The notes under the pieces were generated by a model. It was not told the DNA's origin. It searched no databases and saw nothing but the letters and a program-made list of their open reading frames with translations. From an uncultured candidatus Brocadiaceae bacterium (GTDB taxonomy: Bacteria; Planctomycetota; UBA1135; UBA2386): 64,000 nt of DNA. The stretch covers positions 3,294-67,293 of the forward strand of contig CAZIFB010000023.1 in assembly GCA_964538915.1 (NCBI GenBank), in the 5' to 3' direction. The position numbers were made by a program, and so were the translations under genes. Position 1 is the first letter of the stretch. Each line of letters opens with the position of its first letter. Positions 17,975 to 49,654 of the stretch are shown in pieces.

Positions 17975-18730
17975 ATGGTCGGCCAGACACCCTCGACTGC
18001 TGCGGGCCCGCGTGCGCGGCGGGCACTGGTCACTGGCGGCAGCCGCGGGATCGGCGCGGCGATCTGCCGCCGGCTCGCGGCCGACGGCTATGCGGTGATC
18101 GTGAACTACCGCTCCGACGGCGCGGCAGCCGCGAAGGTCGTCGGCGACATCGAAGCCGCCGGCGGCGAAGCCGTGGCGGCGCAGTTCGACGTCGCGGACG
18201 GCCCCGCCACCGCGCGCGCGATCGCGACACTGCTCGAAGAGCCGCGCCCGATCGCCGTGCTGGTGAACAACGCCGGCGTCGCGCGCGACGCGGCGTTCCC
18301 GGCGATGACCGAGGAGCAGTGGCACGACGTGATGCGCACGACGCTCGACGGCTTCTTCCACGTCACGCACCCTCTGGTGATGCCGATGGTGCAACGCAAG
18401 TGGGGCCGCATCGTCAACCTCTCGTCGATCTCGGCGCTGCGCGGCAACCGCGGCCAGGCCAACTACGCCGCCGCGAAGGCGGGCATCCTCGGTGCGACGA
18501 AGACGCTCGCGATCGAACTCGCGAAGCGCAAGATCACCGTGAATGCAGTCGCGCCCGGACTCGTGGAGACCGAGATGATCGCGGGCGTGCCCGAGTTCGT
18601 GTTCGACATGATCCCGATGCGCCGCGCCGGGACTCCCGACGAGGTCGCGTCGCTCGTCGGCTTCCTCGCGTCCGAGGACGCCGGCTACGTGACCGGGCAG
18701 GTGATCGGCGTCGACGGAGGCTTCCAATGA
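17975..18730 (+). CDS. fabG: 3-oxoacyl-ACP reductase (FabG/ApeQ-like SDR) of aryl-polyene locus
   Basis: Motifs ALVTGGSRGIGAAI, NNAG, SSISALRGNRGQANYAAAKAG (Ser/YxxxK). Start is ambiguous (ATG 17960 or 17975). Stop overlaps the next start (ATGA 18727-18730). Confidence 0.85.
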   Translation: MVGQTPSTAAGPRARRALVTGGSRGIGAAICRRLAADGYAVIVNYRSDGAAAAKVVGDIEAAGGEAVAAQFDVADGPATARAIATLLEEPRPIAVLVNNAGVARDAAFPAMTEEQWHDVMRTTLDGFFHVTHPLVMPMVQRKWGRIVNLSSISALRGNRGQANYAAAKAGILGATKTLAIELAKRKITVNAVAPGLVETEMIAGVPEFVFDMIPMRRAGTPDEVASLVGFLASEDAGYVTGQVIGVDGGFQ

Positions 18731-19947
18731 ACGACGGCCACGACGTGCTGGTGATCGGCGCGGGACCCGCGGGCGCAACCGCGGCCGGCCTCCTGGCCCA
18801 GACCGGTCACCACGTGCTCGTTCTCGAGAAGGACGAGTTCCCGCGCTTCCACATCGGCGAGTCGCTGCTGCCCGCGGGCCTTCCCGTGCTCGAACGGCTC
18901 GGCATCGATCCCTCGAAGGACACGTTCGTCTACAAGGCCGGCGCCGAGTTCGTCTGCGAAGAGAGCGGGCGGCGCGGCGTCTTCGTCTTCCGCGAGTCGC
19001 TGCCCGGATGCGCGCGCCACGCGTGGCACGTCGATCGCGCCCGCTTCGACAAGGCGCTGCGCGACCGCGCCGTCGCGCTCGGCGCGGAGATCCGCCACGG
19101 CGCGACCGTGGTCGACGCGGGCGTGAACGGCGACTCCGTGTTCGTAAAGACGCGCGAGGCCACGTTCCGTGGGCGCTACCTGATCGATGCGTCGGGCCAG
19201 TCGCGGCTGCTCGGGCGACGAGCGGGCACGCTGAAACCGTACGACCGCTTCGGCCACTGCTCGGTGTTCACGCACTACGAAGGACTCGGCGATGCGGCGG
19301 TCGAAGAGATCGGGCCGACGACGAACAACATCCGCATCATGCTGCGACCCGAGGGCTGGGGCTGGATCATCCCGTTGCCCGATCGCGCCCTCAGCGTCGG
19401 CATCGTCGGGCGAGCGAAGATGACGCCCGACGACCTCGATCGTGGCCTGATCGAGAGCCCGATGGTGAAGCGGCTCACCGCCGGTGCACGCCGGCTCGGC
19501 ACACACGTGGTCGGCAACTTCAGCTATCGCAACACGGTGCCGTCGGGCTCACGGTTCACGTCGATCGGGGACGCCGCGTGCTTCCTCGACCCGGTCTTCT
19601 CGTCGGGCGTGACGCTCGCGCTGCGCGGTGCCGAAGCGGTCGCCGACAAGCTCTCGGACGCGCTGAAGAACGGCACCGAGGCCGACCCCGCGTTGCTGCA
19701 CGCCCACGACAGCGGGATGGATCGCGCATACCGCACGTTCGCCGCGCTGATCGAGCGCTTCTATCACACGAACTTCGCCGAGACGATGTTCCTCGGCCCC
19801 GTCGACGACCAGCCGCTGCGGCGCGGCGTGATGAGCGTGCTCGCGGGCGACGTCTGGCGCGAGGGCAATCCGTTCCAGGACATGCTGCTCGCAGCGAAGC
19901 GCAAGGAGAAGGCGGCGGACGCGAGGCGGAGCGGCCATGCGAACTGA
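18727..19947 (+). CDS. FAD-dependent halogenase-like oxidoreductase
   Basis: C-terminal part of track ORF 17563..19947. Motifs VLVIGAGPAGATAA (GxGxxG), EGWGWIIPL (WxWxIP, 19354-19377), FLDPVFSSGV. Confidence 0.8.
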   Translation: MNDGHDVLVIGAGPAGATAAGLLAQTGHHVLVLEKDEFPRFHIGESLLPAGLPVLERLGIDPSKDTFVYKAGAEFVCEESGRRGVFVFRESLPGCARHAWHVDRARFDKALRDRAVALGAEIRHGATVVDAGVNGDSVFVKTREATFRGRYLIDASGQSRLLGRRAGTLKPYDRFGHCSVFTHYEGLGDAAVEEIGPTTNNIRIMLRPEGWGWIIPLPDRALSVGIVGRAKMTPDDLDRGLIESPMVKRLTAGARRLGTHVVGNFSYRNTVPSGSRFTSIGDAACFLDPVFSSGVTLALRGAEAVADKLSDALKNGTEADPALLHAHDSGMDRAYRTFAALIERFYHTNFAETMFLGPVDDQPLRRGVMSVLAGDVWREGNPFQDMLLAAKRKEKAADARRSGHAN

Positions 19948-21106
19948 CCCGCTCCGGGTCACCGGATACGCGATGCTGAGTGCGCTCGGCGGCTCGCGCG
20001 ACGAACACCTTCGCTCGATGATCGAAGGCCGCACGGGTCTCGGCAAACCTCCGTTCGAGCTGCCGTTCGCGACCGCGGTGGGCGCCGTCACAGCGCCGCT
20101 GCCCGACCTGCCCGCGCCGCTCGCGCCGTGGTCGACGCGTCTTGCACGGATGTCGGCGCAGCTGATCGCACAGCTCGACGAGCCGCTCCGCCGCGCGCGA
20201 CAGAAGTGGCGCCCCGAGCGCATCGCGGTCCTGCTCGGCACGAGCACGGCCGGCGCCGACTCGACGGAGCGCGCGTACCGCGCCTTCATCGCCGACGGCC
20301 GCTTCCCCGACCGCTACGACTTCCTCCGCCAGCACACGTTCGGCGCGGTGCTGCACGTCATCGCCGAACTCGCGGGCGCCCGCGGTCCGGCGTGGATGGT
20401 GTCGACCGCGTGCACGTCGAGCGCGAAACCGTTCGCATCGGCGGCGCGCCTCATGGCGACAGGCATGATCGATGCGGCGATCGTCGGCGGCGTCGACACG
20501 CTGTGCCAGATGACGCTGCACGGCTTCGAGTCGCTGCAGGCGCTCGACCGCGCGCCGTGCCGGCCTTTCCACAAGGACCGTCTCGGCATCAGCATCGGCG
20601 AAGGCGGCGCGTTCGCGCTGGTCGAACGCACGGGCGACGCACGCGTGCTCATCGAGGGCGTCGGCGAGACGTCGGACGCCTACCACGTCAGCGCGCCGCA
20701 CCCGGAAGGCGCCGGCGCGCTCGCCGCGATGAAGGAGGCGCTGCACTTCGCCGGACGCACCGCGGACGACGTCGACCACGTGAACGCGCACGGCACCGGC
20801 ACGAAGCTGAACGACAGCGCCGAGGCGAAGGCGATCGGCGCTCTCTTCGCGCGGCCGATCCCCGTCGTGTCGACGAAGTGCTACACGGGTCACACTCTCG
20901 GGGCGGCGGGTGCGCTCGAGTTCGCGTTCTCCGCCTGCGCCATCGAAGAGGGCTGGGTCCCGCCGGCTCTGGGCGCCGACGAACTCGACCCGGAGATCCG
21001 CCTCCACGTGCCGCGCGACGTCGTGCGCGGCACCTACCGTCGCGTGATGAGCAACTCGTTCGCGTTCGGCGGCAACAACGTCGCGATCCTCGTGGGGGCA
21101 CCGTGA
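19937..21106 (+). CDS. beta-ketoacyl-ACP synthase (KS, FabB/F-like; APE type II PKS)
   Basis: Cys-His-His contexts VSTACTSS, AYHVSAPHP, NAHGTGT, and C-terminal NSFAFGGNN. Overlaps the upstream gene by 11 nt. Confidence 0.9.
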   Translation: MRTDPLRVTGYAMLSALGGSRDEHLRSMIEGRTGLGKPPFELPFATAVGAVTAPLPDLPAPLAPWSTRLARMSAQLIAQLDEPLRRARQKWRPERIAVLLGTSTAGADSTERAYRAFIADGRFPDRYDFLRQHTFGAVLHVIAELAGARGPAWMVSTACTSSAKPFASAARLMATGMIDAAIVGGVDTLCQMTLHGFESLQALDRAPCRPFHKDRLGISIGEGGAFALVERTGDARVLIEGVGETSDAYHVSAPHPEGAGALAAMKEALHFAGRTADDVDHVNAHGTGTKLNDSAEAKAIGALFARPIPVVSTKCYTGHTLGAAGALEFAFSACAIEEGWVPPALGADELDPEIRLHVPRDVVRGTYRRVMSNSFAFGGNNVAILVGAP

Positions 21107-21882
21107 GCTCGCCGCGCATCGCCGTCACCGGGCTCGGCTTCTGGGCCACGGGATTCCCAACCGTCGCCGCGTGGACCGCGGGCACCGCGGATCCGACCGC
21201 CGACAAGCCGCAGGGCAAGGCCCTCGACCGCGTGAACCGCCGACGCGCCGGCCCGCTCGATCGCGCCCTGGCCGACGTCGTCGCCGACGCGATCGCGCAA
21301 GCGGGCGTCGATCCGGCGAGCGTGCCCGTCGTCGTCGGCTCGTCGATCGGCGAAGCCGTCACGATGATCGGCCTGCTCGACGAGATGTGGCGCAACCACA
21401 ATCCGATGTCGCCCGCCGACTTCACGATGAGCGTGCACAACGCCGCGTCGGGGCTCATCTCGATCTCGAACAAGAACCGCGGCATGACGACTTCGATCGC
21501 CGCGGACGAGAACACACCCGCCGCCGCGCTGCTCGAGGGCATCGGTCTCGCGCTCACTCGCGAAGTGCCCGTCGTGGTCGCGTGTGCCGACGAACCCGCG
21601 CCGCCGACGCTCGTACAGCACGCGCCGCCGTGGGCGATGCTCGCGTCCGCCGTCGTTCTGGCGCCGCAGGGCGCCGCCGGCGCGCTCGCACATCTGGAAG
21701 TCGAAGAACGCGGAACGCCGACCGTCGTGCCGGGACCGTTCGCGCCGCTGCTGCTCCAGAACCCGCAGATCGGCCTCGCGATGGTCGTCGACGCGATCGC
21801 GCGCGGCGCACGCGGCGTGCTGCCGCTCGATCGCGGCACGGGCCGCGGCCACGTCGCGCGCATCTCCGCCGGCACGCCATGA
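21103..21882 (+). CDS. KS-like chain-length-factor-type protein (no recognisable active-site Cys)
   Basis: GTG 21103 overlaps the KS stop (GTGA). C-terminal part of track ORF 20128..21882. Sequence VSSPRIAVTGLGFWATGF...NAASGLISISNKNRGMTTSI resembles the KS N-terminal half but lacks the ACxS and HGTGT motifs. Confidence 0.7.
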   Translation: MSSPRIAVTGLGFWATGFPTVAAWTAGTADPTADKPQGKALDRVNRRRAGPLDRALADVVADAIAQAGVDPASVPVVVGSSIGEAVTMIGLLDEMWRNHNPMSPADFTMSVHNAASGLISISNKNRGMTTSIAADENTPAAALLEGIGLALTREVPVVVACADEPAPPTLVQHAPPWAMLASAVVLAPQGAAGALAHLEVEERGTPTVVPGPFAPLLLQNPQIGLAMVVDAIARGARGVLPLDRGTGRGHVARISAGTP

Positions 21883-22313
21883 GCCCGTTCCCGCCGATCG
21901 TCGACCTCGTACCCCACGCGCCGCCGACGGTCGCACTGGACGAGCTCGTCGACTGGAGCGAAGACGGCGCCGCCGCCGAGCTGACCGTACGCGACGGCGG
22001 CCTCCTCGTACGCGACGGGCTGGCCGACACGGTCGTCTGCCTCGAATACATGGCGCAAACCGTCGCGGCGTGCCTCGGCTACGGCGCGTTCCGCGGCGGC
22101 GTCGGCGTGCGCGTCGGCATGGTCGTCGCCTGCCGCCGCCTCACGCTGCATCGGTCGCACGTGACCGTCGGCGAACGCCTGCGCACCCGCGTGACACGAC
22201 TGCGCGCCACCGACGACATCAGCAGCTTCGAGGCCGAAGTCCGCGATGCCCACGGCGCCTCCGTCGCGACCGCGACGATGACCCTCGTGCACGCCGAAAA
22301 GCCGCCGACCTGA
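21879..22313 (+). CDS. hot-dog fold 3-hydroxyacyl-ACP dehydratase-like protein (ApeP-like)
   Basis: ATG 21879 overlaps the upstream stop (ATGA). 144 aa. LEYMAQTVAACLGY and a single hot-dog-sized domain. C-terminal part of track ORF 21171..22313. Confidence 0.7.
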   Translation: MSPFPPIVDLVPHAPPTVALDELVDWSEDGAAAELTVRDGGLLVRDGLADTVVCLEYMAQTVAACLGYGAFRGGVGVRVGMVVACRRLTLHRSHVTVGERLRTRVTRLRATDDISSFEAEVRDAHGASVATATMTLVHAEKPPT

Positions 22314-22380: not shown

Positions 22381-25300
22381 ATGCCCTCGCCCACCCTCGC
22401 GCTGCTCGCCCTGCTCGCGCCACAAGAGCCGGCGGCTCCCCCGACGCGACCGTTGTCGTTCGAACGGCAGGTGCTGTCGGACCGGTTCCTGTGCGAAGGC
22501 GCCGGGTTCGGCGACCTCGACGGCGACGGCGACGCCGACGTCGTCGCCGGACCATGGTGGTACGAAGGCCCGGAGTTCACGCAGCGCCACGCGCTGTATC
22601 CCGAGAAGCAGTTCCACCGACTGCACTACTCGGACAACTTCTTCGCGTGGGTCCGCGACGTCGACGGCGACGGGCACAACGACGTCTTCTGCGTCGGCTT
22701 CCCGGGCCAGGACGCGTTCTGGTTGCGCAACCCCGGCGAAAAGGACGGTGAGTGGGTACGCCACGTCGTGTTCCAGGGCATCGACAACGAGTCGCCCGAG
22801 TTCGTGGACCTCACCGGCGACGGCAAGCCCGAACTCGTCTGCCAGAACAACGACCGGCTCGGCTGGATCCAGGCGGACTGGAACGATCCGAAGAAGGCGT
22901 GGACGTTCCACACGGCGCTCGGCAAGGGCGCGGGCGCGGCGTTCACGCACGGGCTAGGTGCCGGCGACATCGACGGCGACGGGCGCCGCGACATCGTGAC
23001 GGCGCGCGGCTGGTACGCGCAGCCGAAGGAACTCACGTGCGATCCGGAGTGGACCTTCCACGCGGTCCCGTTCTCACCCGGTCACGGCGGCGCGCAGATG
23101 CTCGTCACCGACGTCGACGGCGACGGCGATGCCGATGTCGTGACTTCGTACTCCGCGCACGGCTGGGGCCTCGCGTGGTTCGAGCAGCAGGAGGCAGGCG
23201 CCTTCGTCGCGCACGAACTGATGCCGGCGAAGCCCGCCCCGGGCAATGTCAGCGAGCTGCACGCGCTCTGCCTGTGCGACCTCGACGGCGATGGCCTGCA
23301 GGACGTCGTGACGGGCAAGCGCTGGTGGTCCCACGGCCCGACGAAGGACGGCAACGCCGACGGCGCAAACGATCCGGCGATCCTGCTGGGTCTCCTGCTT
23401 CGTCGCGACGGCAAGAGCGCGCGCTACGAGGTGACGGTGCTCGACGGCGATTCCGGTGTCGGCACGCAGGTCGTCGCGGGTGACGTCGACGGCGACGGCG
23501 ACACGGACGTGGTGGTCGGCAACAAGAAGGGCACGTTCGTGCTCCGCCAGCAGGAGCCGAAGAAGGTCGGCAAAGCACCGGCGGCCGTCGGCGAGCCTCC
23601 CGACCTCGACTTCGAGAGCGGTTCGCTGCGCGGATGGACCGCGACCGGCAACGCCTTCGAGGGCCAGCCGATCCGCGGCGACACCGTCGCCGCGCGTCGC
23701 GCGAAGATGCGGAGCGCACACCAGGGCGAGTTCTGGGTCGGAGGCTACGAACTGCTCGGCGACGAACCGACCGGTACGCTGACGTCGAACCCGTTCCCGG
23801 TGACCGGCGCGTGGGCGACGTTCCTGGTCGGCGGCGGCGAAACCGACGCGACGCGGGTCGAAGTGCTCGATGCCGCCGACGACCGCGTGCTGTTCTCCGC
23901 GCACGGCACCAACCGCGAAACGATGGAACCGGTGCTGCTCGACCTGCGCGCGCACGCCGGGAAGTCGCTGCGCATCCGCCTCGTCGACGAAACGAGCGGC
24001 GGCTGGGGCCATGTGAACTTCGACGCATTCCTGTTCCACGACGCGCCGGTGCGCGGGACGCTGCCCGACTCGATCGGCGGCCTCGCGCCCGCGGAAGCGG
24101 CGCGCGCGATGACGGCCCTGCCCGGCTTCCAGGTCGATCTGATCGCCGCAGAGCCCGACCTACACCAGCCCGTCGCGCTCTGGGTCGACCAGCGCGCGCG
24201 ACTCTGGGTCGCCGAGGCGTACAGCTACCCGACCCGCCGCGAGGACAAGGACGCGAGGGACACGATCCTGGTGTTCGAGGATCGCGATCACGACGGCAGC
24301 TACGAGAGCCGCACGGTGTTCTTCGACAAGCTGAACCTCGTGAGCGGCCTCGCGTGCGGCTTCGGAGGCGTCTGGGTCGGCGCCGCGCCGCACCTCCTGT
24401 TCATCCCCGACGCGAACGGCGACCTCGTGCCCGACGGGCCGCCCGAGGTCGTGCTCGACGGCTTCGGCTACGAGGACACGCACGAGACGCTCAACAGCTT
24501 CACCTGGGGCCCCGACGGCTGGCTCTACGGCACGCACGGCGTCTTCACCGAGAGCAACGTCGGCGTCCCGGGCACTCCGGCCGATCGCCGCGTCGCGCTG
24601 ACGTGCGGCGTGTGGCGTTTCCAGCCGCAGCGCCGCGAGTTCGAAGTGTTCGCGTACGGCACGAGCAACCCCTGGGGCGTCGACTTCGACGAGCGCGGCG
24701 AAGCGTTCCTCGCGTGCTGCGTGATCCCGCACCTGTGGCACATGGCGCAGGGTGGGCGTTTCCGCCGGCAGAGCGGCAGCCACGCCGACCCGCACCCGTG
24801 GATCGAGATCGCGACGATCGCCGACCACCTGCACTACGCGGGCAGCACGCGCGACCACGCGTGGTGGGGCCGGGAGCGGGCCGTCGTCGACCCCGGCACC
24901 GACGCGGCGGGCGGCGGCCACGCCCACTGCGGCACGCTCATCTACAAGGGCGACGCGTTCCCGCCCGAGTTCCGCGGCGCGATGCTGTTCCACAACATCC
25001 ACGGCAACCGCGTCAACCAGGACCGCCTCGAACGCCGCGGTTCGGGCTACGTCGGCCACCACGCTCCCGATCTCGTGAAGGCGAACGATCCGTGGTTCCG
25101 CGGCGTGGCGCTGCGGCAGGGTGCGGCCGGCGAGGTCTTCTTCATCGACTGGTACGACAAGCTCGCGTGCCACCGCGAGAAGCCGGAGCTCTGGGATCGC
25201 ACGAACGGCCGCATGTACCGCCTGAGCTACGGCGCGCCCCGCGGAGTGGACGTCGCGTTCGACGCAGAGACCGACGATCAGCTCGCGGCGGCCCAGGCGA

Positions 25301-27549: not shown

Positions 27550-27564
27550 GCGCGAGTCCGCGCG

Positions 27565-30207: not shown

Positions 30208-30348
30208 CGAAAGGAAGCAGCGAACCGCCGGCCCTCCGTGTTCGCGGATTCCGGGAGAACCACCCGCAGTCTCCCGCTGAGACCGATGCCATCGCGGCGA
30301 CGGGCACATCGCCGCCCGATGCGGTCGCGCGTGTTACGTTCGTTCGGC

Positions 30349-31959: not shown

Positions 31960-31963
31960 TAGC

Positions 31964-33341: not shown

Positions 33342-33352
33342 TCGCGGGGCCC

Positions 33353-40801: not shown

Positions 40802-41766
40802 GCGAACGCCCGGCAACGTGGCTGTCCCGCCGCGAACGCGGCACCATCCTCGGCATCCGCGCCGCGTTCCGCTGCGCGACGCTGTTCGGCCGTCCCGCGA
40901 CCAAGCCGCTCGTCGGCTTCCTCGCGTTCTGGTACCAGCTCTTCGATCGGCGCACGGCGCACATCTCGCGCGCCTGGCTGCGCCGCGCGACCGGCCGCGA
41001 CCCGGGGTTCTTCGGCGTGTGGCGTCACCTCTTCACGTTCGCGCAGACGACGCTCGACAAGGTGTTCCTGCTGACGAACCGCACGAGGAGCCTCGTGTTC
41101 AACCGCACGGGGCACGAACTGCTCACGGCACAGCGGGCGACCGGCCGTGGTGCGGTCCTGCTCGGCGCGCACGTCGGCAGCTACGAAGCCATGCGCGCCG
41201 GCGGCGACCGCGACGACGTGCCCATCAAGATCCTCGGCTACTTCCAGAACGCCGCGCGCATCAACTCGCTGCTCGCCGAACTGAATCCGACGCAGGCCGC
41301 GCAGGTGATCCACGTCGGCGACGATCCGGTCGGCGTCGTCGCGAAGGTGCAGGAGTGCATCGAGAAGGGCGAGTTCATCGCGGTCCTCGGTGACCGCACC
41401 GGACTGAACGACCGCAGCGTGCCGGCGACGTTCTTCGGCGAACCCGCCAACTTCGCCAGCGGGCCGTTCCTGCTCGCATCGATCCTGCGGTGCCCGGTCT
41501 ACCTCGTGTTCGGCCTCTACGAGGCGCCAAACCGCTACGAGTTGCATTGCGAGCGCTTCGCCGATCGCCTCGACATCCCGCGCCGCGACCGCGAAACGGC
41601 GCTGCGCGCCTGGGTGCAGCGTTACGCCGAACGCGTCGAACACCACGCTCGCTCCTCGCCGCTGAACTGGTTCAACTTCTACGACTTCTGGGCCCCCGAC
41701 GCGCGCGGCGCCGCCGCCACTCGCCCGACCGCCGCGGCCCCCACCGAGCAACGAGCCACGTCGTGA
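40798..41766 (+). CDS. LpxL/HtrB-like lysophospholipid acyltransferase (ApeD-like)
   Basis: ATG 40798 overlaps the upstream stop (ATGA). AVLLGAHVGSYEAMRA (HX4E/D-type motif region), IAVLGDRTG, GPFLLASILRCPVYLVF. Confidence 0.8.
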   Translation: MSERPATWLSRRERGTILGIRAAFRCATLFGRPATKPLVGFLAFWYQLFDRRTAHISRAWLRRATGRDPGFFGVWRHLFTFAQTTLDKVFLLTNRTRSLVFNRTGHELLTAQRATGRGAVLLGAHVGSYEAMRAGGDRDDVPIKILGYFQNAARINSLLAELNPTQAAQVIHVGDDPVGVVAKVQECIEKGEFIAVLGDRTGLNDRSVPATFFGEPANFASGPFLLASILRCPVYLVFGLYEAPNRYELHCERFADRLDIPRRDRETALRAWVQRYAERVEHHARSSPLNWFNFYDFWAPDARGAAATRPTAAAPTEQRATS

Positions 41767-42182
41767 ACCGGAAACGCCCGCCGCACGCGATCACCGTCGA
41801 GCAGAAGATCGGGCTGCACCACTGCGATCTGCTCGGCGTCGCGTGGCACGGCCGCTACTTCGAGTGGTTCGAGGTCGCGCGCACGGCTCTTTTCTGCAGC
41901 ATCGACCTCGACGTGCCGCGCATCCGCGACCTCGGGTTCCGCATGTACGTGGTCGACGCCCGCTGCCGCTACATGGCCGCGCTGCAGTACGGCGACACCG
42001 CGACGATCACCGCGTGGTTCGTGGCGACGGAACCGTTGATCCGCGTCGCGTACGACATCGTCGATCCGGGAACCGGCCGCTGGTGCGCCCGCGCGACGAC
42101 GGTGCTCGCGACGACCGACGCCGCGGGCACCCTGCTGGCGACGACGCCGGCGGAGCTGCTCGAACGGCTGCCGCGCCGCTGA
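41763..42182 (+). CDS. 4HBT/YbgC-like acyl thioesterase (hot-dog)
   Basis: GTG 41763 overlaps the upstream stop (GTGA). 139 aa. HHCDLLGVAWHGRYFEWFEVART is typical of 4-hydroxybenzoyl-CoA-thioesterase-fold proteins. Confidence 0.8.
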   Translation: MNRKRPPHAITVEQKIGLHHCDLLGVAWHGRYFEWFEVARTALFCSIDLDVPRIRDLGFRMYVVDARCRYMAALQYGDTATITAWFVATEPLIRVAYDIVDPGTGRWCARATTVLATTDAAGTLLATTPAELLERLPRR

Positions 42183-42190
42183 TCACCGCG

Positions 42191-43840
42191 TCACTTGTCG
42201 GACGGGATCTCGAGCATCGTCGACTCCTGCAGGCGAGCCTGCATGTCGGCGACGTAGCGCGGCACCTCGAACGCGGCGGTCAGCGACCACGGGTGCCGCT
42301 CGCGAACCGCGTTCCACAGCACGATCACGTCCTGGTACTGGCGCTGCTCGACCATCCGTTCCTTGCTCACCAGCGACCAGGTCTCGACGACGGCGAAGCG
42401 CGCCACCAGCTCGACGCACGCGAATGCACCGAACGCGGCGACACCGCACACGGTGAGGAACAGGCGCACCAGGCGACGCTTCCGTTCGCGACGGCGCACG
42501 AAGATCTCCTTGTCGATCATCTCGATCGACACGGTCGCTTCGCGGTTGCCGGGCTCGATGTCCAGGACCTCCTCGAACAGGGAACGTGCGGCGACGTAGT
42601 CCTGCTTCTGGATCAAGGTCTTGCCGCGCCGCGCTAGCTGCTTCACCGCCTCCTGCGACTCGCCGCAGTCGACACGGCAACGCGCGAGCTCGACGTGCAG
42701 GGCGTCGTCGTCGGGTGCGACACGCAGCAGCTTCTCGAGCACTTCCTTCGCCCGGCTGTGCAGACCGGGACCGCGATGGAGCGACACGAGCTGCATGCCG
42801 TCCCGCACCGCTTCTTCGCGTCGCCCCTGCGCGATGAGCAGCGCCAACGTCTTCTCCCAGAGACTCTGGTCGGTCGGCGTCAGCTCCTTCGCGTACTCGA
42901 GTTCGCGCAGCGCGTCGTCCGTACGACCGGCCTCGAGGTGGAGATGCCCGGCCAGCTTGCGCGCCGCGGCGGCGGCGACGCCGTCGTCCAACGCCTCGGC
43001 GAGGCGCGCTTCGGCGGCGAGCAGGTCGAGGTTGTGCGGTTCGCGCTCCAGCGCACGGCGGACGAGCTGACGCGACCGCGCCGGATCGTCGCTCTCGACG
43101 CCCCGCGCGATCTCGAGCAGGTCCTCGGTTCCCGTCGGCCGCGCGAGCCGGTCGCGGACGAAGTCGGCCATCATCTTGAACGCGAGGAAGCGCTGGTGCG
43201 GGAAGAGGTCGGCGACCTCCTTCACGCTGCGCGAGCCGTCGAGTGCACCGAGGATCTGTGCCGCCAGTTCGGGGTCCTCGCTCTCGGCCGGGCACCTGGC
43301 CCCGGTGCGCGCCTGGAAGTGCATGCCCTCCGACGGCAGGAACTTCTTGATCTCGGCCCAATGATCGACACGGCGCGTGGCTTCGAGGATCAACGGCGCC
43401 ACCGGCAGTGCGAGCTGCAGACTCGTCTCGTCCGCGTCGAAGCCGCGGTCCGGCTCCTTCTGTTCTTCGAACTGGAATTCGCCCTGCGCCGCCGCGATCA
43501 GGTTCGCGATGTCCTCCGAGAGGAACTCCTCCGCAGCCTGCTTCGCGGCTTCGAACGTGAGCACCTTCGCGCCGACCAGCACTTCGAGCGCACAACGACG
43601 ACCGCGCTTCTTGTCGGCGGCCTCGAGCTTGCGTCGCGTCAGCACACCCGCGGCGACCAGGCGCTCGGGCAACGACACACGACCGTCGCTCGCGAGCATC
43701 GCGACGTTGCCGTCGCGGAAGAACACCTTCGACTGCCCGTCCTCCGAGCGCAGCGTCAGCGTGCCGGTCCGCGCATGGACCTGGATGTTCTGCAAGAGGT
43801 CCGCGAGATCGATGGTTGCGAGATCGCCCGAAACGGTCAT
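42191..43840 (-). CDS. DUF4388 (PatA-N-like) plus TPR-repeat protein with C-terminal TM helix
   Basis: Start set to ATG 43840 (GGAGG 5 nt upstream) rather than 43879. N-terminal GDLATIDLADLLQNIQVHARTGTLTL (DUF4388 signature). TPR-like helices in the middle. TM helix LFLTVCGVAAFGAFACVELVA. Confidence 0.8.
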   Translation of the reverse strand: MTVSGDLATIDLADLLQNIQVHARTGTLTLRSEDGQSKVFFRDGNVAMLASDGRVSLPERLVAAGVLTRRKLEAADKKRGRRCALEVLVGAKVLTFEAAKQAAEEFLSEDIANLIAAAQGEFQFEEQKEPDRGFDADETSLQLALPVAPLILEATRRVDHWAEIKKFLPSEGMHFQARTGARCPAESEDPELAAQILGALDGSRSVKEVADLFPHQRFLAFKMMADFVRDRLARPTGTEDLLEIARGVESDDPARSRQLVRRALEREPHNLDLLAAEARLAEALDDGVAAAAARKLAGHLHLEAGRTDDALRELEYAKELTPTDQSLWEKTLALLIAQGRREEAVRDGMQLVSLHRGPGLHSRAKEVLEKLLRVAPDDDALHVELARCRVDCGESQEAVKQLARRGKTLIQKQDYVAARSLFEEVLDIEPGNREATVSIEMIDKEIFVRRRERKRRLVRLFLTVCGVAAFGAFACVELVARFAVVETWSLVSKERMVEQRQYQDVIVLWNAVRERHPWSLTAAFEVPRYVADMQARLQESTMLEIPSDK

Positions 43841-44010
43841 GACATCCTCCGCATCCCGTTTCGGCATCGCGCGCGCCACGCGGGTGGACCACTACGGAAA
43901 ACTCCGCCCTGCCGCCCCTGCTCCGGCGCCGAACCCTCGATGGCGCCGGGAGACCCGATCCGGGACGAACTTGCGCGGCCCGGCGACGCCCACCTACCAT
44001 CGCCGCGCGC

Positions 44011-44775
44011 ATGCGACCTTCCGAGCGACCCACGACGCCGCTCCTGCTGTCCGTCCTGGCGGCAGGGCTCTTCGCCGCCTCGGCGAGTTCGCAGACGCCT
44101 CCCGCGGCGCCGAAGGCGGTGGATCCCGCGCCGAAGGCGATCGAGCCGACACCGCAGGATCGGGCGCGCCCGGCGAACGCCACCGAGCTGTTCCGAGCGA
44201 TGGCGGCGATGCGCGGCCTCGAAGCGAGGTTCGAGGAGGAGAAGCACCTGCAGCTGCTCGCCGCTCCGCTGCACAGCTCGGGTGCGCTGTACTTCCTGCG
44301 GCTCGACCCGCGCGACGCGGGGGAAGGGCGCACCGCCGGCGGCTACCTGACGCGTGTCGTCGAGAAGCCCGAGCCGTCGACCGTGCGGATCTCGCCACGG
44401 GAACTGCGTGTGCAGAACCGCGACGGCACCGAAGTCATCGACCTCGAACGCAGCGACAAGGTGCGCACGTTCGTCTCGTCGCTCGTGCAGGTGTTCGCCG
44501 GCGACGAGGCGGCGCTGACGAAGGCGTGGTCCGTCGAGTTCGTCACCGATCCGAAGAGCGACAAGACCTGGACGCTGACGCTGTCGCCGCGCGCGGCGCC
44601 GCTCGACAAGACCGTGAAGAGCCTGCGCCTCGTCGGCGAGGGGCGCGCGATCGTCCGCGTGGAGATGCTGGAGCCGAACGGCGACCGCACCGTGACGCGC
44701 ATCGTCGGCGCCGACCCCGACCGGGCCTTCGACGCCGCCGAGCAGAAGAAGCTGTTCGGCATCGAACCGCGATGA
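44011..44775 (+). CDS. LolA-like outer-membrane lipoprotein-carrier-fold protein (ApeL-like)
   Basis: Signal peptide. FRAMAAMRGLEARFEEEKHLQLLAAPLHSSGALYF matches the LolA-family N-terminal pattern. Sits directly upstream of the MMPL gene. Confidence 0.7.
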   Translation: MRPSERPTTPLLLSVLAAGLFAASASSQTPPAAPKAVDPAPKAIEPTPQDRARPANATELFRAMAAMRGLEARFEEEKHLQLLAAPLHSSGALYFLRLDPRDAGEGRTAGGYLTRVVEKPEPSTVRISPRELRVQNRDGTEVIDLERSDKVRTFVSSLVQVFAGDEAALTKAWSVEFVTDPKSDKTWTLTLSPRAAPLDKTVKSLRLVGEGRAIVRVEMLEPNGDRTVTRIVGADPDRAFDAAEQKKLFGIEPR

Positions 44776-47168
44776 CCGGCGGCGAACGGCCGCGGCTCCT
44801 GCTCGGCGCACTGGTCCTCGCCATCCTGGGCGGGTTCGTCGCGCTGCGATTGCGTGTCACGACCGACATCACGCACTTCCTGCCGCACGGCGAACGCGAC
44901 TCCGACGTCGATCTCGCGCGCCGCATCGCGACCGGGCCGATGAGCCGCACGATGGTCCTGCTCGTCGACACGAACGACCGCGACGAGGCCGCCGCCGTCA
45001 GCAGGACGTTCGAGGCCGAACTGCGCGCGGAGCCGGCGGTCGCGATCGCGGCCGAGTCGATCGAGGGCGGTCCGCCGCCCGGCATCGAGGAGGCGCTGTG
45101 GTCGCTGTGGCACCCGCGACGTTTCGCGTTCCTCGCGGCGGAGACCGACGACGGGCAATCGCGGATCGGCGACGCACGCATCACCGCGGCGGTGGCCGAG
45201 CTGAAACGTCGCCTCGCTTCGCCGATGTCGGGGCTCGTCTCGCGCGTGGCGCCGAGCGATCCGTTCCTCGTGATGCCGCGACTCTTCGAACGCATGTCCG
45301 GCGGCAGCGGCGCCGGGCTCGCGATCGTCGAAGACCGCTTCGTCACGACCGACGGAACCGGAGCCGTGCTCTTCCTCACGACGCGCGCGTCGTCGTCCGA
45401 CTCGACGGCGCAGCGCCCGGTGCTGCGCGGCGTGCAGGACGCGTTCGCCCGCGTCGTGCAGAAGCACGGCCGGCACCTGCGCCTCCGGCGCAGCGGCGCG
45501 AACCGCCACGCGATCGCGGCCGAGGACTCGATGCAGGCGGACATGCAGCGTGTGTCGATCGTGTCGATCGCCGGCCTGCTGTCGCTCTACCTCCTGTTGT
45601 TCCGCTCCGTCCGCCCCGCGCTGCTGTCGCTCCCCGTCCTCGGCGCAGGCTTCCTCGCGGGCACCACCTCCTGCCTGCTCGCTTTCGGCGCGATCCACGG
45701 GCTCACGCTCGCGTTCGGCGCGTCCCTGCTCGGCGTCGCCGTCGACTACTCCCTGCACTTCTATGCGCACGAGGCGCTGTCGCCCGACCCGCGCGGCCCG
45801 CGTTCGACGCTGCGGCGGATCCAGGGCAGCCTCGTGCTGTGCACCGCGACGACGATCGTCGGCTTCGTCGCGCTGCTCGGCTCGACGTTCCCCGGCCTGC
45901 GCGAACTGGCTCTCTTCGCGGCCACCGGCCTCGCGGCCTCGCTCGGCGCAACGTGGCTGATCCTGCCGGCCCTCACCCGCGGCGTCCGCGTCACCCGCGT
46001 GAGCCGTATCCTCACCGGCGGCCTCGCTGCACTCGAAGACCGCCGCACGCGATCGCGGCTCTGGCTCGTGCTCCCGGCGATCGCGATCCTCGTCGCGACC
46101 GCTGTCGGCCTGCCGCGTGCGTCGTGGGACGACAGCGTGCAGAGCCTGAACCGCGTCGATGCGACCTTGAAGGCCGAAGACGACGCCGTGCACGCACGGG
46201 TCGCGCGCTTCGAGCAGCGGCGCGTGCTGGTCACCGAGGGCGCAGACGAGAACGCAGCGCTCACGAACTACCGCACCGTGGCGACGGCGCTCGCTGCCGC
46301 GAAGGACCGGACCGCGATCGCCGACTTCGGCAACATGGCAGCGCTGCTGCCGAGCCCCGATCTGCAGGCACGGGTCGACGCGGCGGTGCGCGGCGACGCG
46401 ACGCTGTGGCCGCGCCTTCGCGACGCACTCGTCGCGGCAGGCTTCAAGACGGAGGCTTTCGCCCCGTTCGTGGAGGACCTCGGCAAGCCGGCGCCCGCGC
46501 CGCTGTTGCCCCGCGATCTCGACGGCACGCCGCTGCAATCGCTCGTGCGGCCGTTCCGCCTCGACCTGCCCGACGGCACGGCGTGGCTCTCGTTCGTGCA
46601 GCGTGCAGAGCCGGAAGCGTTCGCGGCCGCCGGAGCGCTCGGCCCGCAGGCCCTCGGCGAACACACCCGCGTCATCGACATCGAAGCGACCCTGGCCGGC
46701 GCTCTCGCACGCTACCGGGGCAGCATGGTCGAACTGCTGCTGCTCGGCACGCTGGCGGTCGTGGTGCTCGTGGCGGCGAAACAGCGGCGCCTGCGCCCGA
46801 CCCTGCTCGCCTGCGCCCCTCCACTGCTCGCCGCGGCCGGTACGGTCGGCGTGCTCACGCTGGCGGGGGTGCCGATGAACCTGATGAGCCTGATGGCCCT
46901 CCTCATGGTCGTCAGCATGGGCGACGACTACGGCATCTTCCTCGTCGACGACGCCGACGCCGAGTCGCGCGACGCGACCCACCTGTCGGTGATCTCGTCC
47001 GCGATGTCGACGATCTTCGGCTTCGGCCTGCTCGCGATGTCGGACCAGCCTGCGCTCCGTTCGATCGGTCTCGTCTCGATGGTCGGCGTCGTACTCAGCG
47101 TGGTCCTGGCGCTCGCGACCGGCGCGCTGTTCTTGCCGGTCCGCCACGGTGCTTCGCCGGCCCGTTGA
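44772..47168 (+). CDS. MMPL/RND-superfamily exporter (ApeM-like)
   Basis: ATG 44772 overlaps the upstream stop (ATGA). C-terminal 798 aa of track ORF 43377..47168. Two blocks of 5-6 TM helices each follow a large soluble loop. Motifs GVAVDYSLHF and MGDDYGIFLV. Confidence 0.85.
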   Translation: MTGGERPRLLLGALVLAILGGFVALRLRVTTDITHFLPHGERDSDVDLARRIATGPMSRTMVLLVDTNDRDEAAAVSRTFEAELRAEPAVAIAAESIEGGPPPGIEEALWSLWHPRRFAFLAAETDDGQSRIGDARITAAVAELKRRLASPMSGLVSRVAPSDPFLVMPRLFERMSGGSGAGLAIVEDRFVTTDGTGAVLFLTTRASSSDSTAQRPVLRGVQDAFARVVQKHGRHLRLRRSGANRHAIAAEDSMQADMQRVSIVSIAGLLSLYLLLFRSVRPALLSLPVLGAGFLAGTTSCLLAFGAIHGLTLAFGASLLGVAVDYSLHFYAHEALSPDPRGPRSTLRRIQGSLVLCTATTIVGFVALLGSTFPGLRELALFAATGLAASLGATWLILPALTRGVRVTRVSRILTGGLAALEDRRTRSRLWLVLPAIAILVATAVGLPRASWDDSVQSLNRVDATLKAEDDAVHARVARFEQRRVLVTEGADENAALTNYRTVATALAAAKDRTAIADFGNMAALLPSPDLQARVDAAVRGDATLWPRLRDALVAAGFKTEAFAPFVEDLGKPAPAPLLPRDLDGTPLQSLVRPFRLDLPDGTAWLSFVQRAEPEAFAAAGALGPQALGEHTRVIDIEATLAGALARYRGSMVELLLLGTLAVVVLVAAKQRRLRPTLLACAPPLLAAAGTVGVLTLAGVPMNLMSLMALLMVVSMGDDYGIFLVDDADAESRDATHLSVISSAMSTIFGFGLLAMSDQPALRSIGLVSMVGVVLSVVLALATGALFLPVRHGASPAR

Positions 47169-47220
47169 CCTCGGGCCGAATCCTGCGCTGGCGCTGCACC
47201 GACCGGCGCCGCTGCGTATC

Positions 47221-47886
47221 GTGCGCGCCGTGCGTCCCGCCCGCTGCTTGCCGCTCCTCGCCGTCGCCGTCGCCGCTGCCGCGTGCACGACGACGCGGCG
47301 CACGCCGTTCGACGAGATGGAGTATCCGGGCGAATTGCTGCCCGCGCAGGCGGTGCCCGGCGACGTGGTCTGGCAACAACGCGTCACGGCGACCTGGGGA
47401 CTGGCCGGCGGGGAACCGGGCGAACGCGGCTTCGACGCGGCGATCCAGAAGCAGGGAGACGTGCTGACGGTGCTCGGCCTGTCGCCGATGGGTTCGGTCG
47501 GCTTCGCGATGATCCTGCGCGGGACGACGGTCGAGGTGCAGAACCACGCCGACCAGGAGCTGCCGTTCCCCGCGCGATTCGTGCTGCTCGACGTGCAACG
47601 CACCTTCTACCCGTGGCTCGGCGCACCGCTGGCGAACGGGCAGCGCACCGGCGTCGTCGGCGTCGAGGAAGTCACCGAGCGATGGGCGAACGGTCGCCTG
47701 CTCCATCGCACGTTCACCCGCCGCGACGGCAAACCCGCGGGCACGATCGCGGTGACGTACGACTGGCGCGACGACGACGCACGCGACCGGCTCGCGCCCT
47801 CGCGCACCGTGCTCGACAACGGCTGGTTCGGTTACCGCCTCGCGGTCGACACGCACCGAGAGACGAAGCTCGGTCCGTCCCGCTGA
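47221..47886 (+). CDS. DUF3261-like lipoprotein (ApeN-like)
   Basis: Track ORF 47149..47886. Preferred start is GTG 47221, giving VRAVRPARCLPLLAVAVAAAA|C (lipobox). Position after the MMPL gene is as in APE clusters. Confidence 0.6.
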   Translation: MRAVRPARCLPLLAVAVAAAACTTTRRTPFDEMEYPGELLPAQAVPGDVVWQQRVTATWGLAGGEPGERGFDAAIQKQGDVLTVLGLSPMGSVGFAMILRGTTVEVQNHADQELPFPARFVLLDVQRTFYPWLGAPLANGQRTGVVGVEEVTERWANGRLLHRTFTRRDGKPAGTIAVTYDWRDDDARDRLAPSRTVLDNGWFGYRLAVDTHRETKLGPSR

Positions 47887-49004
47887 TGGCCATCCGCGTC
47901 CACGTCGCCGGCCGCGGCGCGATCACCGGCTTCGGCCCGGGCCACCGCCGGTTCGTCGACGCGATCTTCGCCGGCGAGACGGCGATCCGGACGCGCGCGC
48001 GCACTGCTGCGTTCGCGGTCCCGACGAACGTCGCGGCCGAAGTGCCCGGCGATGCACTGCCGCCGGGCCTCGCCGGGCGCGACCACGCCTTCTGGTTCGC
48101 GATCACCGCCGCCCACGAAGCGCTCACCGAAGCGCGCGAACCGCCGCACGACCGCACGATGCTCGTGCTCGCGTCGACGAAGGGCGACCTGTCTGGCGTC
48201 GACGGCGCCGGCGACGGCCTCGGGCAGCCGTGGCGGCTCGGGGCGCGGCTCGCGCACGAACTCGGCATCGGTGGCGACGTGGTGAACGTGTCGTGCGCGT
48301 GCGCGTCCGGCCTCGTGGCGCTCGCCACGGCCGCACGCCGGATCGCGGCCGGCGAAGCCGAGCGCGCCCTCGTCGTCGGCGTCGACGCGCTGCACGCGTT
48401 CGTGATGGCCGGATTCGGTTCACTCAACGCCCTCGACCGCGAACCCTGCCGGCCGTTCGATCGAGCGCGCCGCGGAGTGACCCTCGGCGAGGGTGCGGGC
48501 GCGATCCTGTTGTCGCGCCATGCGCACGAGTCGATCGGCGCCGCCATCGTCGGACACGGCGGCGCCAACGACGCGTGCCACGTCACCGGCCCCGACCGCC
48601 AGGGCGCGGGCATCGCTCTCGCCGCCGCGCGTGCGCTCGCGAACGCGGGGCTCACGACACACGACGTCGACGTGCTGCACCTGCACGGCACCGCGACCGA
48701 GGCGAACGACGCGACCGAGGCGACGGGCCTCGCGCGCCTGTTCGGTGGCCGCACGCCGCCGGCCTTCGGGACGAAGGCGCAGACCGGTCACACGCTCGGC
48801 GCAGCGGGCGTTCTCGAGGCCATCGCCGCCATCGAGTCGCTGCAACGCGGCGAAGCGGCCGCGAACGTCGCACTCGCAGACCCGGACGTCGACGCGGGTC
48901 TCGACCTCGTCCGCGCGCCGCATCGCCTGCCGCGGGCGAAGACCGCGCTCAAGGTCGCGAGCGGGTTCGGCGGCGTGCAGGCCGCGGTGGTGCTCCAGTC
49001 ATGA
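47886..49004 (+). CDS. beta-ketoacyl-ACP synthase (KS, second copy)
   Basis: ATG 47886 overlaps the upstream TGA by 1 nt. Motifs NVSCACASGL, ACHVTGP, HLHGTATEAND, ASGFGGVQAAVVL. Confidence 0.9.
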   Translation: MAIRVHVAGRGAITGFGPGHRRFVDAIFAGETAIRTRARTAAFAVPTNVAAEVPGDALPPGLAGRDHAFWFAITAAHEALTEAREPPHDRTMLVLASTKGDLSGVDGAGDGLGQPWRLGARLAHELGIGGDVVNVSCACASGLVALATAARRIAAGEAERALVVGVDALHAFVMAGFGSLNALDREPCRPFDRARRGVTLGEGAGAILLSRHAHESIGAAIVGHGGANDACHVTGPDRQGAGIALAAARALANAGLTTHDVDVLHLHGTATEANDATEATGLARLFGGRTPPAFGTKAQTGHTLGAAGVLEAIAAIESLQRGEAAANVALADPDVDAGLDLVRAPHRLPRAKTALKVASGFGGVQAAVVLQS

Positions 49005-49654
49005 CGCCTCCCGTCGTCGTGGCCGCCGTCGGCGTCGTCGACGAGATCGGCATCGCGGGGAGCAGCGGTGTGCGCGTGTCCTGGGGCGATCTCGGCATCG
49101 CCGCACCCGGCGACGGCCGCACGTTCCGCGCCGCCTTCGGTCGCAGTGACGAGACGTTCCGCCGGCTCGACGTTGCGTCCCGCACGCTCGTGCTCGCGTG
49201 CGAAGCGCTCGCGCTGCCGGCCGTGCTGGCGCCTGACCGACGCGACGAGACGGCACTGGTCGTCGAGACGACGGCCGGTTGCCTCGACGCGGATCTGCAG
49301 TTCGCCGCGAGCCTCGCCGCGGCGATGCACGACGCGCCGATCTTCCCGTACACGTTGCCGAGCACGTGCCTCGGGGAAGTGGCGCTGCGGCACGGCCTGC
49401 GCGGCATCAGCACCTGCCTGTCGGTCGCACCAGCCTCCCGCGGGGCGGCGCTCGCCGAGGCGACCCGCCTCCTGACGAACGACGAGGCGCCCGCGGTCGT
49501 CGTCGCGAGCGTCGACGTGCTCGTCCGTCCGGATGCGCCGGCCCCGCGCGAGTGCCGGGCCGTGGCCGCGCTGCTGACGACCTCGGCGTCGGGATCGCGC
49601 GCCGTGGCGATCGCGCCGCTCGCCTGGTCGTCGCTGCTCGAAGCCGCGCGCTGA
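49001..49654 (+). CDS. KS N-terminal-like chain-length-factor-type protein (second copy)
   Basis: ATG 49001 overlaps the KS stop (ATGA). 217 aa. FPYTLPSTCLGEVALRHGLRG resembles the KS fold without the catalytic triad. Confidence 0.7.
   Translation: MTPPVVVAAVGVVDEIGIAGSSGVRVSWGDLGIAAPGDGRTFRAAFGRSDETFRRLDVASRTLVLACEALALPAVLAPDRRDETALVVETTAGCLDADLQFAASLAAAMHDAPIFPYTLPSTCLGEVALRHGLRGISTCLSVAPASRGAALAEATRLLTNDEAPAVVVASVDVLVRPDAPAPRECRAVAALLTTSASGSRAVAIAPLAWSSLLEAAR

Follow-up and report, generated by a model that had tools for sequence, protein, structure and literature searches.

The 64,000-nucleotide stretch analysed here (the window; positions 3,294 to 67,293 of contig CAZIFB010000023.1, assembly GCA_964538915.1, from an uncultured candidatus Brocadiaceae bacterium) carries a gene set of the aryl polyene (APE) type; no other family of biosynthetic clusters is as widespread among Gram-negative bacteria. 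Because the window has a composition of ~70% GC and its raw lists of open reading frames (ORFs) were swamped by shadow frames, genes were called with an iterated codon-usage model trained on the window, and this yielded a clean, non-overlapping gene map; a simple GC3 filter was too noisy and was dropped. The called genes were scanned against Pfam and NCBIfam. As summarized in Table 1, every gene listed in the original prediction, which had described an APE-type cluster divided between two loci in a genome like those of the Planctomycetes-Verrucomicrobia-Chlamydiae group, was recovered at about the predicted position by the codon model, Pfam, and NCBIfam. The genome is that of a member of the Planctomycetota, since close homologues carry this name: those nearest to the first ketosynthase, KS1 (65-98% identity), came almost all from metagenome-assembled genomes (MAGs) named Planctomycetes or Planctomycetota.

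Table 1. Genes of the split APE-type cluster and of the segments that interrupt it (window coordinates; KS, ketosynthase; CLF, chain-length factor; ACP, acyl carrier protein)
Feature	Coordinates	Strand	Support
ApeQ-type 3-ketoacyl-ACP reductase (KR), short-chain dehydrogenase/reductase type	about 17936/17975-18730	+	Pfam adh_short_C2/KR
Flavin-dependent halogenase Hal406, 406 aa	18727-19947	+	Pfam Trp_halogenase 1.3e-30
ApeO-type ketosynthase KS1, Cys-His-His intact	19937-21106	+	NF006618 413 bits, above cutoff
ApeC-type chain-length-factor partner CLF1	21103-21882	+	Pfam Ketoacyl-synt_2 (PF13723) 1.6e-26
ApeP-type hot-dog dehydratase	21879-22313	+	Pfam ApeP-like
DUF7133/FG-GAP protein, 1722 aa, one CQACH haem motif (CxxCH)	22381-27549		Pfam
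Beta-lactamase-family protein, 880 aa, SMTK	27565-30207	-	Pfam
aceB	30331-31959		Pfam
aceA	32022-33341		Pfam
Hypothetical protein	33592-34629	-	
ApeB-like S-adenosylmethionine-dependent methyltransferase (OMT, Methyltransf_2)	34874-35872	-	Pfam 1.4e-42
Flavin-dependent halogenase Hal591, 591 aa	35869-37644	-	Pfam Trp_halogenase
ApeE-type starter ACP, DSID and GEG motifs	37774-38064	+	NF006617 92 bits, above cutoff
ApeG-type membrane protein	38072-38662	+	EcApeG 41% identity, 3.9e-27
Fusion of degenerate ApeH-like ANL domain and ApeI-type dehydratase, 469 aa	38655-40064	+	Profile, AlphaFold2, Foldseek
Family 2 glycosyltransferase (GT2), N-terminal half of ApeJ	about 40061-40801	+	Pfam Glycos_transf_2
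LpxL-like acyltransferase, C-terminal half of ApeJ	40798-41766	+	Pfam Lip_A_acyltrans
ApeK-type 4HBT thioesterase	41763-42182	+	Pfam 4HBT_2
DUF4388 (PATAN) and TPR protein, 562 aa, second interruption	42191-43879	-	DUF4388 3.8e-21 and TPRs
ApeL-type LolA-like carrier	44011-44775	+	Pfam LolA_3
ApeM-type MMPL/RND exporter	44772-47168	+	Pfam MMPL, NCBIfam HpnN-like
ApeN-type DUF3261 protein	47149-47886	+	Pfam DUF3261 4e-13; EcApeN annotated DUF3261
Second ketosynthase KS2, Cys-His-His intact	47886-49004	+	Pfam KS N- and C-terminal domains
Truncated KS-like partner CLF2, 217 aa	49001-49654	+	Pfam ketoacyl-synt 1.2e-6

For the comparison with relatives, one genome per GTDB species was scanned with a profile of Hal591, which yielded 87 loci (L001-L087), and all window proteins were then run against these loci by tblastn. 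The APE cluster of E. coli CFT073 served as the reference, its proteins (EcApe) being compared pairwise with those of the window by blastp.

The four gene junctions of locus 1 were measured to overlap by 4, 11, 4, and 4 bp in gene order, in agreement with the overlapping stops and starts that had been predicted; the start of the KR gene is uncertain, with candidates at 17906, 17936, 17960, and 17975. KS1 and KS2 both retain the active-site Cys, while their partners, described earlier as Cys-less, carry Glu (CLF1) and Pro (CLF2) at this column, where E. coli ApeC has Arg. The two flavoproteins that had been called halogenase-like both matched flavin-dependent halogenases: the best Protein Data Bank (PDB) matches of Hal406 were the halogenases 8zop, PltA, CmlS, CndH, and Bmp2, and the protein carries the GxGxxG (GAGPAG) and WxWxIP (GWGWIIP) motifs with an aligned catalytic Lys70, while the Hal591 profile matched CndH, Bmp2, CmlS, and PltA, with GAGLAG and WVWVIP as the corresponding motifs and with Lys90 aligned to the lysine of CndH IKRGGTF. 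Judged by these motifs, both proteins are flavin-dependent halogenases of a PltA/CndH/Bmp2-like variant.

Altogether, 17 genes homologous to Ape proteins of E. coli, Xenorhabdus, and Acinetobacter lie within 32 kb, and the block from ApeE to ApeN is collinear with that of E. coli, which is far beyond chance. The blastp comparison aligned the KR with EcApeQ (49% identity), KS1 with EcApeO over its full length (38%), CLF1 with EcApeC (33% over 48 residues), the locus 1 dehydratase with EcApeP (30%, 1.9e-12), and, weakly, the methyltransferase with EcApeB (23%, 4e-7). In locus 2, the ACP shared 49% identity with EcApeE versus 37% over 43 residues with ApeF, the C terminus of the 469-aa fusion protein shared 32% with EcApeI, and the GT2 and the LpxL-like acyltransferase aligned with residues 8-237 (39%) and 243-549 (33%) of EcApeJ, respectively; identities were 34% for the thioesterase against EcApeK, 27% for LolA against EcApeL, and 25% over 598 aa for the MMPL protein against EcApeM. 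The predicted APE assignment is thus borne out by matches to EcApeB, C, E, G, I, J, K, L, M, O, P, and Q together with structures: CLF1 matched ApeC (7f28_A, 1.6e-7), the dehydratase matched ApeP (6qsr_B, 1e-4), and the hot-dog part of the fusion protein matched 3esi and 6qsr_A.

The same comparisons bear on the idea that locus 1 is an independent, fatty-acid-synthesis-like set of paralogues, functionally unrelated to locus 2, which we find scarcely credible. The KR scores above the NCBIfam FabG equivalog cutoff, and the five-gene module stands alone in two relatives (L006/L007), as this idea would have it. However, KS1, CLF1, ApeP, and the KR best matched ApeO, ApeC, ApeP, and ApeQ rather than enzymes of fatty acid synthesis: KS1 reached 245 bits against ApeO (6qsp_A) and 224 bits against 7f28_B, compared with at most 159 bits against any FabF or FabB, and the KR reached 232-244 bits against ApeQ (7caw, 6nrp, and 4iiu), compared with 166-170 bits against the FabG proteins of A. 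baumannii and E. coli (identities of these entries as in PMC8041823). Since the ApeO and ApeQ scores far exceed those of FabF, FabB, and FabG, the locus 1 KS and KR are not, on a best-hit basis, the ordinary fatty-acid paralogues whose presence the original prediction had named as a finding that would overturn it. Moreover, a halogenase is embedded in the operon, and in 16 relatives from two phyla the module directly borders the remaining cluster genes.

In locus 2, the export set of ApeG, ApeL (LolA), ApeM (MMPL), and ApeN (DUF3261) is complete, and among the lipid-anchoring genes ApeJ is present as two genes, ApeK is present, and ApeD is absent from the window. Most relatives have a PF01553 acyltransferase (ApeD) between Hal591 and the ACP. 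KS2 occupies the position of ApeO and is more ApeO-like than ApeR-like (39.5% identity and 148 bits with EcApeO versus 30% and 108 bits with EcApeR), and CLF2, which gave a weak match to 7f28_B, is kept after KS2 in L019, L032, and L037.

Compared with the APE systems of E. coli CFT073, Xenorhabdus doucetiae, and A. baumannii (ApeA-ApeR), the window contains homologues of ApeB, C, E, G, H (by fold only), and I to Q; the order from ApeE to ApeN is the same, a starter-supply gene is absent from both clusters, and A. baumannii likewise has ApeH fused to ApeI. The window differs from the E. coli type in having two flavin-dependent halogenases, an ApeJ split into GT2 and LpxL-like genes, a single ACP without ApeF, no ApeD, KS2 with a truncated Cys-less partner in place of the FabB-like ApeR, an ApeH domain without adenylation motifs, and genes in three blocks instead of one operon.

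The resemblance to the xanthomonadin and arcuflavin systems of Xanthomonas, Lysobacter, and Azoarcus sp. BH72 lies in the type II polyene polyketide synthase (PKS), the unusual KS/CLF, the GT2, and the acyltransferase, as well as in the decoration by halogenase and methyltransferase, whose association with KS/CLF is conserved in the relatives of the window. Xanthomonadins bear zero to two Br and a methoxy group (PMC3691225, PMC3949708). The gene order of the window, in contrast, follows the E. coli type, and the host phylum differs; a XanB2/ArcB chorismatase was not found in the window (the protein-family scan covered the genes of the window and not the other ORFs of the relatives), nor was an active AMP-ligase of the ArcT/XanA2 type found. 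APE-like loci with a Hal591 homologue (33-37% identity) were also seen in Rubrivivax/Burkholderiales MAGs (L074-L087), several of which have a Hal406 homologue (32-36%) and two KS/partner pairs; the full combination is present in L087, and most of it in L076, L082, and L085. These loci link the subfamily to the xanthomonadin/arcuflavin-type clusters.

Some flexirubins, the APE-related pigments of Bacteroidota, are chlorinated. Their gene sets share APE-type KS/CLF, KR, dehydratase, LolA-like, and exporter genes with the window, which lacks a tyrosine ammonia-lyase (FlxA) and the DarA/DarB dialkylresorcinol genes. A flexirubin assignment was rejected because the scores fell below the model cutoffs (FlxB 287 versus 340, FlxJ 25 versus 560, and LolA2 31 versus 125), as was an assignment to cispentacin biosynthesis (AmcF/AmcB) suggested by NCBIfam matches that scored below their cutoffs. 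Of the "xanthomonadin/flexirubin-type" label given earlier, the flexirubin half therefore falls, while a xanthomonadin-type flavor is reasonable in view of the two halogenases, the methyltransferase, and the two KS/partner pairs. A further point of comparison is Planctomycetales strain 10988, which makes 3,5-dibromo-p-anisic acid from 4-hydroxybenzoic acid (4-HBA) with the chorismate lyase BaaA, the halogenase BaaB, and an unlinked O-methyltransferase (bioRxiv 10.1101/723874). There, too, the genes are scattered and a planctomycete produces a halogenated, O-methylated unit derived from 4-HBA, although that pathway has no PKS, ACP, or export genes and the likeness is a chemical analogy only. 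By this analogy, a halogenated, O-methylated benzoate unit is plausible in Planctomycetota.

We examined how the two loci are arranged in the 87 related loci. ApeP adjoins OMT/Hal591 (within 0.2 kb) in 16 of them, from two phyla, and the ApeP-OMT gap is free of the spacer genes in these 16 relatives. In 12 loci, a single cluster extends from the KR to ApeK or ApeM or further: nine in Planctomycetota-labelled or unlabelled MAGs (L020, L027, L029, L032, L033, L037, L038, L040, and L059) and three in Myxococcota MAGs (L026, L047, and L073, the last with a 1.8-kb gap). The order in these clusters is KR, Hal406, KS1, CLF1, and ApeP, then OMT and Hal591 (divergent), followed by the PF01553 acyltransferase, ACP, ApeG, ApeH-I, GT2, LpxL, thioesterase, LolA, MMPL, DUF3261, KS2, and CLF2. 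Judged by gene order, the contiguous arrangement is ancestral, and since at least 12 Planctomycetota and Myxococcota MAGs carry the genes contiguously, the split is a lineage-specific interruption. Of the two alternatives in the original prediction, the synteny thus agrees with the one in which a once contiguous cluster was interrupted. Break points elsewhere differ: two foreign genes lie between Hal406 and KS1 in L004, the ACP block stands apart in L005, and in L006/L007 the five-gene locus 1 module is by itself.

Two other groups of loci are recorded here as observations in their own right. L039 (CAMAUH010000119.1) and L010 (CAYMRG010000283.1) are labelled Candidatus Kuenenia stuttgartiensis and Brocadiaceae, and they carry the cluster at 70-71% GC, with Hal591 75-76% identical to that of the window; since Kuenenia genomes have ~41% GC, these contigs are probably mis-binned. 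A third locus type was found in Sandaracinaceae/Polyangiales MAGs (L043-L071), where two Hal591 paralogues lie near a KS in about 10 loci (L052, L056, L060, L062, L063, L065, L066, L068, L069, and L071), several of which also have DUF3261 and MMPL genes nearby.

The segment that parts ApeP from OMT in the window (22381-34629) is unrelated to APE biosynthesis. The predicted 12.5-kb spacer was found as described, whereas the idea of a single break was not upheld, as a DUF4388 (PATAN)/TPR gene absent from the original list parts the thioesterase from LolA. The encoded protein is possibly a regulator; among the 87 loci, such a gene occupies the thioesterase-LolA site in L008, L009, and L014 only. 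The aceBA interruption is confined to the clade of the window, L001-L003 and L011 (Hal591 77% identical). Orthologues in L001-L003 share 89-99% protein identity and 87-96% DNA identity with the window, and in L011 aceBA lies near OMT, 5.9 kb away. L001 lacks the DUF7133 and beta-lactamase genes and retains a 46-bp remnant of the latter (window 29612-29657 versus L001 12411-12456; 98% identity). An insertion of these two genes into the window was therefore rejected: because of this remnant, the shorter spacer of L001 represents a deletion and not the ancestral state. Further differences between the two are an extra 1.85 kb in the window (13921-15770) and an extra 0.65 kb in L001 near 33434.

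The window carries an FG-GAP gene at 13999-15405 (minus strand) that is missing from L001, and the contig of a sister MAG, L002 (1-5604), has genes for a phage-type integrase, a DUF3987 protein, and a DUF1580 protein upstream of an HXXSHH gene; indels and mobile DNA accumulate in this neighborhood (window 13921-15770, L002 1-5604). In a Polyangiales MAG (L048), aceA and aceB lie 3 kb from a Hal591 homologue at a differently organised APE-like locus, and the proximity of these genes to the APE-type genes in L048 and L011 could be a coincidence or a recurrent association of such clusters with the glyoxylate shunt. An Eco57I-like N6-adenine methylase/restriction gene (type IIG-like), unrelated to APE, is located at 60388-62211 (plus strand).

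To gauge selection on the split cluster, the window was compared with a sister species in which the cluster is split likewise and whose DNA is ~91% identical (87-96% nucleotide identity, with dS ~0.2-0.39). All ORFs of the Ape cluster are intact, and each of the 18 Ape genes compared, whether from locus 1 or locus 2, had a dN/dS within 0.03-0.26, similar to the values for aceA and aceB; the PATAN/TPR gene gave 0.05. Because all Ape genes fall in this range, the split cluster is maintained, and the split has been tolerated for a substantial time. The original prediction had posed a choice between a functional split cluster and an ancestral cluster disrupted by insertion or rearrangement. Both parts hold together, since synteny shows the interruption and dN/dS shows no inactivation.

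These data also speak to the possibility that the cluster is decaying, with insertions having broken its operon structure and the pathway being non-functional in this host. The two interruptions, the loss of ApeD from its site, the spacer indels of kilobase size at only ~91% DNA identity between the genomes, and the further scattering of modules in L005, L006/L007, and L013 could all be read in this way. Yet the intact ORFs and the low dN/dS in both loci, measured against a species that shares the split, are not expected of a dying pathway, the module order persists in many lineages, and there is precedent for a working split, as Azoarcus sp. BH72 makes the pigment arcuflavin from genes at two unlinked loci (PMC3949708). 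We therefore consider decay very improbable.

The gene for the fusion protein required separate analysis. The 469-aa protein, to which the homologue P0121 is 100% identical, consists of an N-terminal domain of ~335 aa and the ApeI-type hot-dog domain, and it had no Pfam or NCBIfam match, that of Pfam AMP-binding included. Its AlphaFold2 model, based on 24 homologues (predicted local distance difference test 89, predicted template modelling score 0.84), was grouped by Foldseek with ANL enzymes (E ~1e-12), the aryl-acid adenylases CahJ, FscC, PchD, 4CL, and MenE among them, and the ApeH-like sequence profile reached the malonyl-CoA ligase MatB (4e-8) and DhbE (4e-4). The description of the gene as an ANL-like/dehydratase fusion is thus confirmed at the level of fold. 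In the profile alignment with MatB, however, the P-loop of the ligase (TSGTTGPPKG) faces a variable, gap-rich stretch (aaeaegelae), the A5 motif YGxTE has no counterpart, and the A10 lysine is replaced by Arg, Gln, Ala, or His. EcApeH, in contrast, keeps TSGSTGQPK and YGSTETG and matches Pfam AMP-binding, and so does P0169, a canonical ApeH-ApeI fusion from the same search (TSGTTGARK, FGATETG, and GK). Since only the first 65 columns (the N-terminal A1/A2 region) aligned when the ApeH-like alignment was compared with the one EcApeH sequence by hhalign, the motif loss rests on the hmmsearch alignment to MatB, visual inspection of the alignment, a regular-expression scan, and the comparison with P0169. 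The word-index search with the N-domain profile returned 25 proteins only, so the degenerate form is thinly sampled.

In eight of the relatives (P0141-P0148), the N-domain is much shorter and the whole protein has 334-352 aa. P0145, which is encoded on the same 39,403-bp contig as L011 and is the one of the eight that was read, has an ApeH-like domain cut to its first ~190 residues and fused straight to the ApeI dehydratase, the C-terminal part of the ANL-like domain being gone. This series suggests a stepwise decay of the ANL domain. The N-domain of the window protein is nevertheless under purifying selection (omega 0.21), and it has a distinct set of invariant residues (W50, G53, H54, L58, P59, H81, D82, G84, G86, and G88), which form the motifs W..GH...LP and HD.G.G.G.

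Taken together, we consider it likely that the region represents one APE-family pathway of a Planctomycetota/Myxococcota subfamily, ancestrally contiguous and later interrupted, which still works as a unit, because the pathway genes are intact and under selection. The features that distinguish this subfamily are the two halogenases, the split ApeJ, the single ACP, the second KS/partner pair, and the degenerate ApeH domain. In a model based on homology to the systems that have been reconstituted from Xenorhabdus and Acinetobacter (PMC8253772, PMC8358021, PMC12624758, and PMC8041823), the ApeE-type ACP, which has the GEG motif described for such carriers (PMC12624758), would carry the starter, and KS1:CLF1 (ApeO:ApeC) would extend it with malonyl units, KS2:CLF2 acting as a second condensing pair. 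In each round, the ApeQ-type KR would reduce and the pair of ApeI domain and ApeP would dehydrate the chain to give a conjugated polyene, which the two flavin-dependent halogenases and the methyltransferase may decorate, as in xanthomonadins. The thioesterase, the GT2, and the LpxL-like acyltransferase would attach the polyene to a lipid anchor, and ApeG, LolA, MMPL, and DUF3261 would carry the product to the outer membrane. In the lineage of the window, the 12.5-kb aceBA block would have come to lie between ApeP and the methyltransferase and the PATAN/TPR gene between the thioesterase and LolA, and ApeD would have left its usual site. The data show the gene content, the orthology, the ancestral contiguity, the purifying selection, the halogenase motifs, and the degeneracy of the ApeH domain; what the pathway makes, that its blocks are co-expressed, and which starter is used and how it is loaded are inferred.

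Several points weigh against this interpretation. The KR, as mentioned, is also above the FabG equivalog cutoff; the window encodes one ACP and no ApeF; a PF01553 (ApeD-type) acyltransferase was found nowhere in the whole window; purifying selection shows that each gene is kept but does not establish co-expression of the three blocks; and the literature yielded neither a product nor a dedicated study of a Planctomycetota APE, such APEs appearing in antiSMASH-type genome-mining mentions only and a 2025 review of planctomycetal metabolites naming none. The most serious point concerns priming. The first step of APE synthesis is the ATP-dependent formation of an aryl-ACP by ApeH (PMC8253772, PMC12624758). 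None of the 24 aligned ApeH-like homologues has the P-loop, the A5 motif, or the A10 lysine, and the ApeH-like domain is ~110 residues shorter than canonical ANL enzymes; on these motifs, the step cannot be assigned to any gene of the window or of the contiguous clusters. Either an unlinked ligase forms the aryl-ACP, or priming differs, possibly through KS2:CLF2, which replaces the FabB-like ApeR.

The second of these options can be taken further: the Planctomycetota/Myxococcota subfamily might have dropped ApeH-type aryl priming altogether, leaving the ANL domain as a conserved pseudo-enzyme, a remnant on the dehydratase with a structural or ACP-docking role. Chain initiation would then fall to KS2:CLF2 (through decarboxylation or an acyl-CoA primer) or to an unlinked ligase, or it would use a non-aromatic starter, and the product would be a halogenated polyene lipid of the outer membrane with a head group or priming unlike that of known APEs. 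This would account for the motif loss in 24 of 24 homologues when EcApeH and P0169 keep the motifs, for the absence of a P-loop ANL protein from all 87 related loci in the regular-expression scan, complete contiguous clusters included, for the shortened N-domains of P0141-P0148, for the exchange of ApeR for a second KS with a Cys-less partner, and for an N-domain that is constrained around invariant motifs of its own. On the other hand, the ACP is clearly of the ApeE type, a starter carrier, the Methyltransf_2 enzyme and the PltA/CndH/Bmp2-like halogenases best fit a phenolic ring, and a trans-acting ligase may be encoded elsewhere in the genome, beyond the 64-kb window. On balance, we regard such a change of priming as unlikely.

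On the interpretation preferred here, that of an APE-family pathway still working as a unit, the starter must, given an ApeH-like domain devoid of adenylation motifs, be supplied from outside the cluster. As predicted, no starter-unit enzyme was visible: the Pfam domains of the called genes and the syntenic annotation of L001 revealed no gene for a chorismate lyase, a chorismatase, or an ammonia-lyase in the 64 kb. This is no anomaly, since the E. coli APE cluster likewise depends on the housekeeping UbiC (PMC8253772). Beyond the KR in the contiguous relatives, a search for a conserved starter-supply gene found only a BamE-like lipoprotein, which is not an enzyme. This protein of ~190 aa (signal peptide and Cys, weak BamE match) is encoded before the KR in L004 (3094-3720), L020, L027, L033, L040, and L059, is absent from the window, and may be an analogue of the lipoprotein ApeA.

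Across the window and all related loci, a single P-loop was detected (TSGTTGRPK, near 4462); it belongs to a protein of >1648 aa encoded at 2-4945 (minus strand) and running off the window start, which combines canonical AMP-binding, PP-binding, hexapeptide transferase, and Acyl_transf_3/HGSNAT membrane acyltransferase domains. Its gene sits 13 kb upstream of locus 1, with unrelated genes between.

The splitting of such a cluster has a precedent in the APE-type loci of Azoarcus (arcuflavin). What the window documents is a conserved two-halogenase subfamily common to Planctomycetota and Myxococcota, in which a cluster fragments while under selection; this is a warning to genome miners, as tools that rely on cluster boundaries will undercount such pathways. 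It also raises a concrete question, namely, how chain priming proceeds with an ApeH domain devoid of ATP-binding motifs. If priming proves routine, the subfamily is an ordinary member of the APE family; if it is unusual, the subfamily could yield new halogenated polyene lipids.

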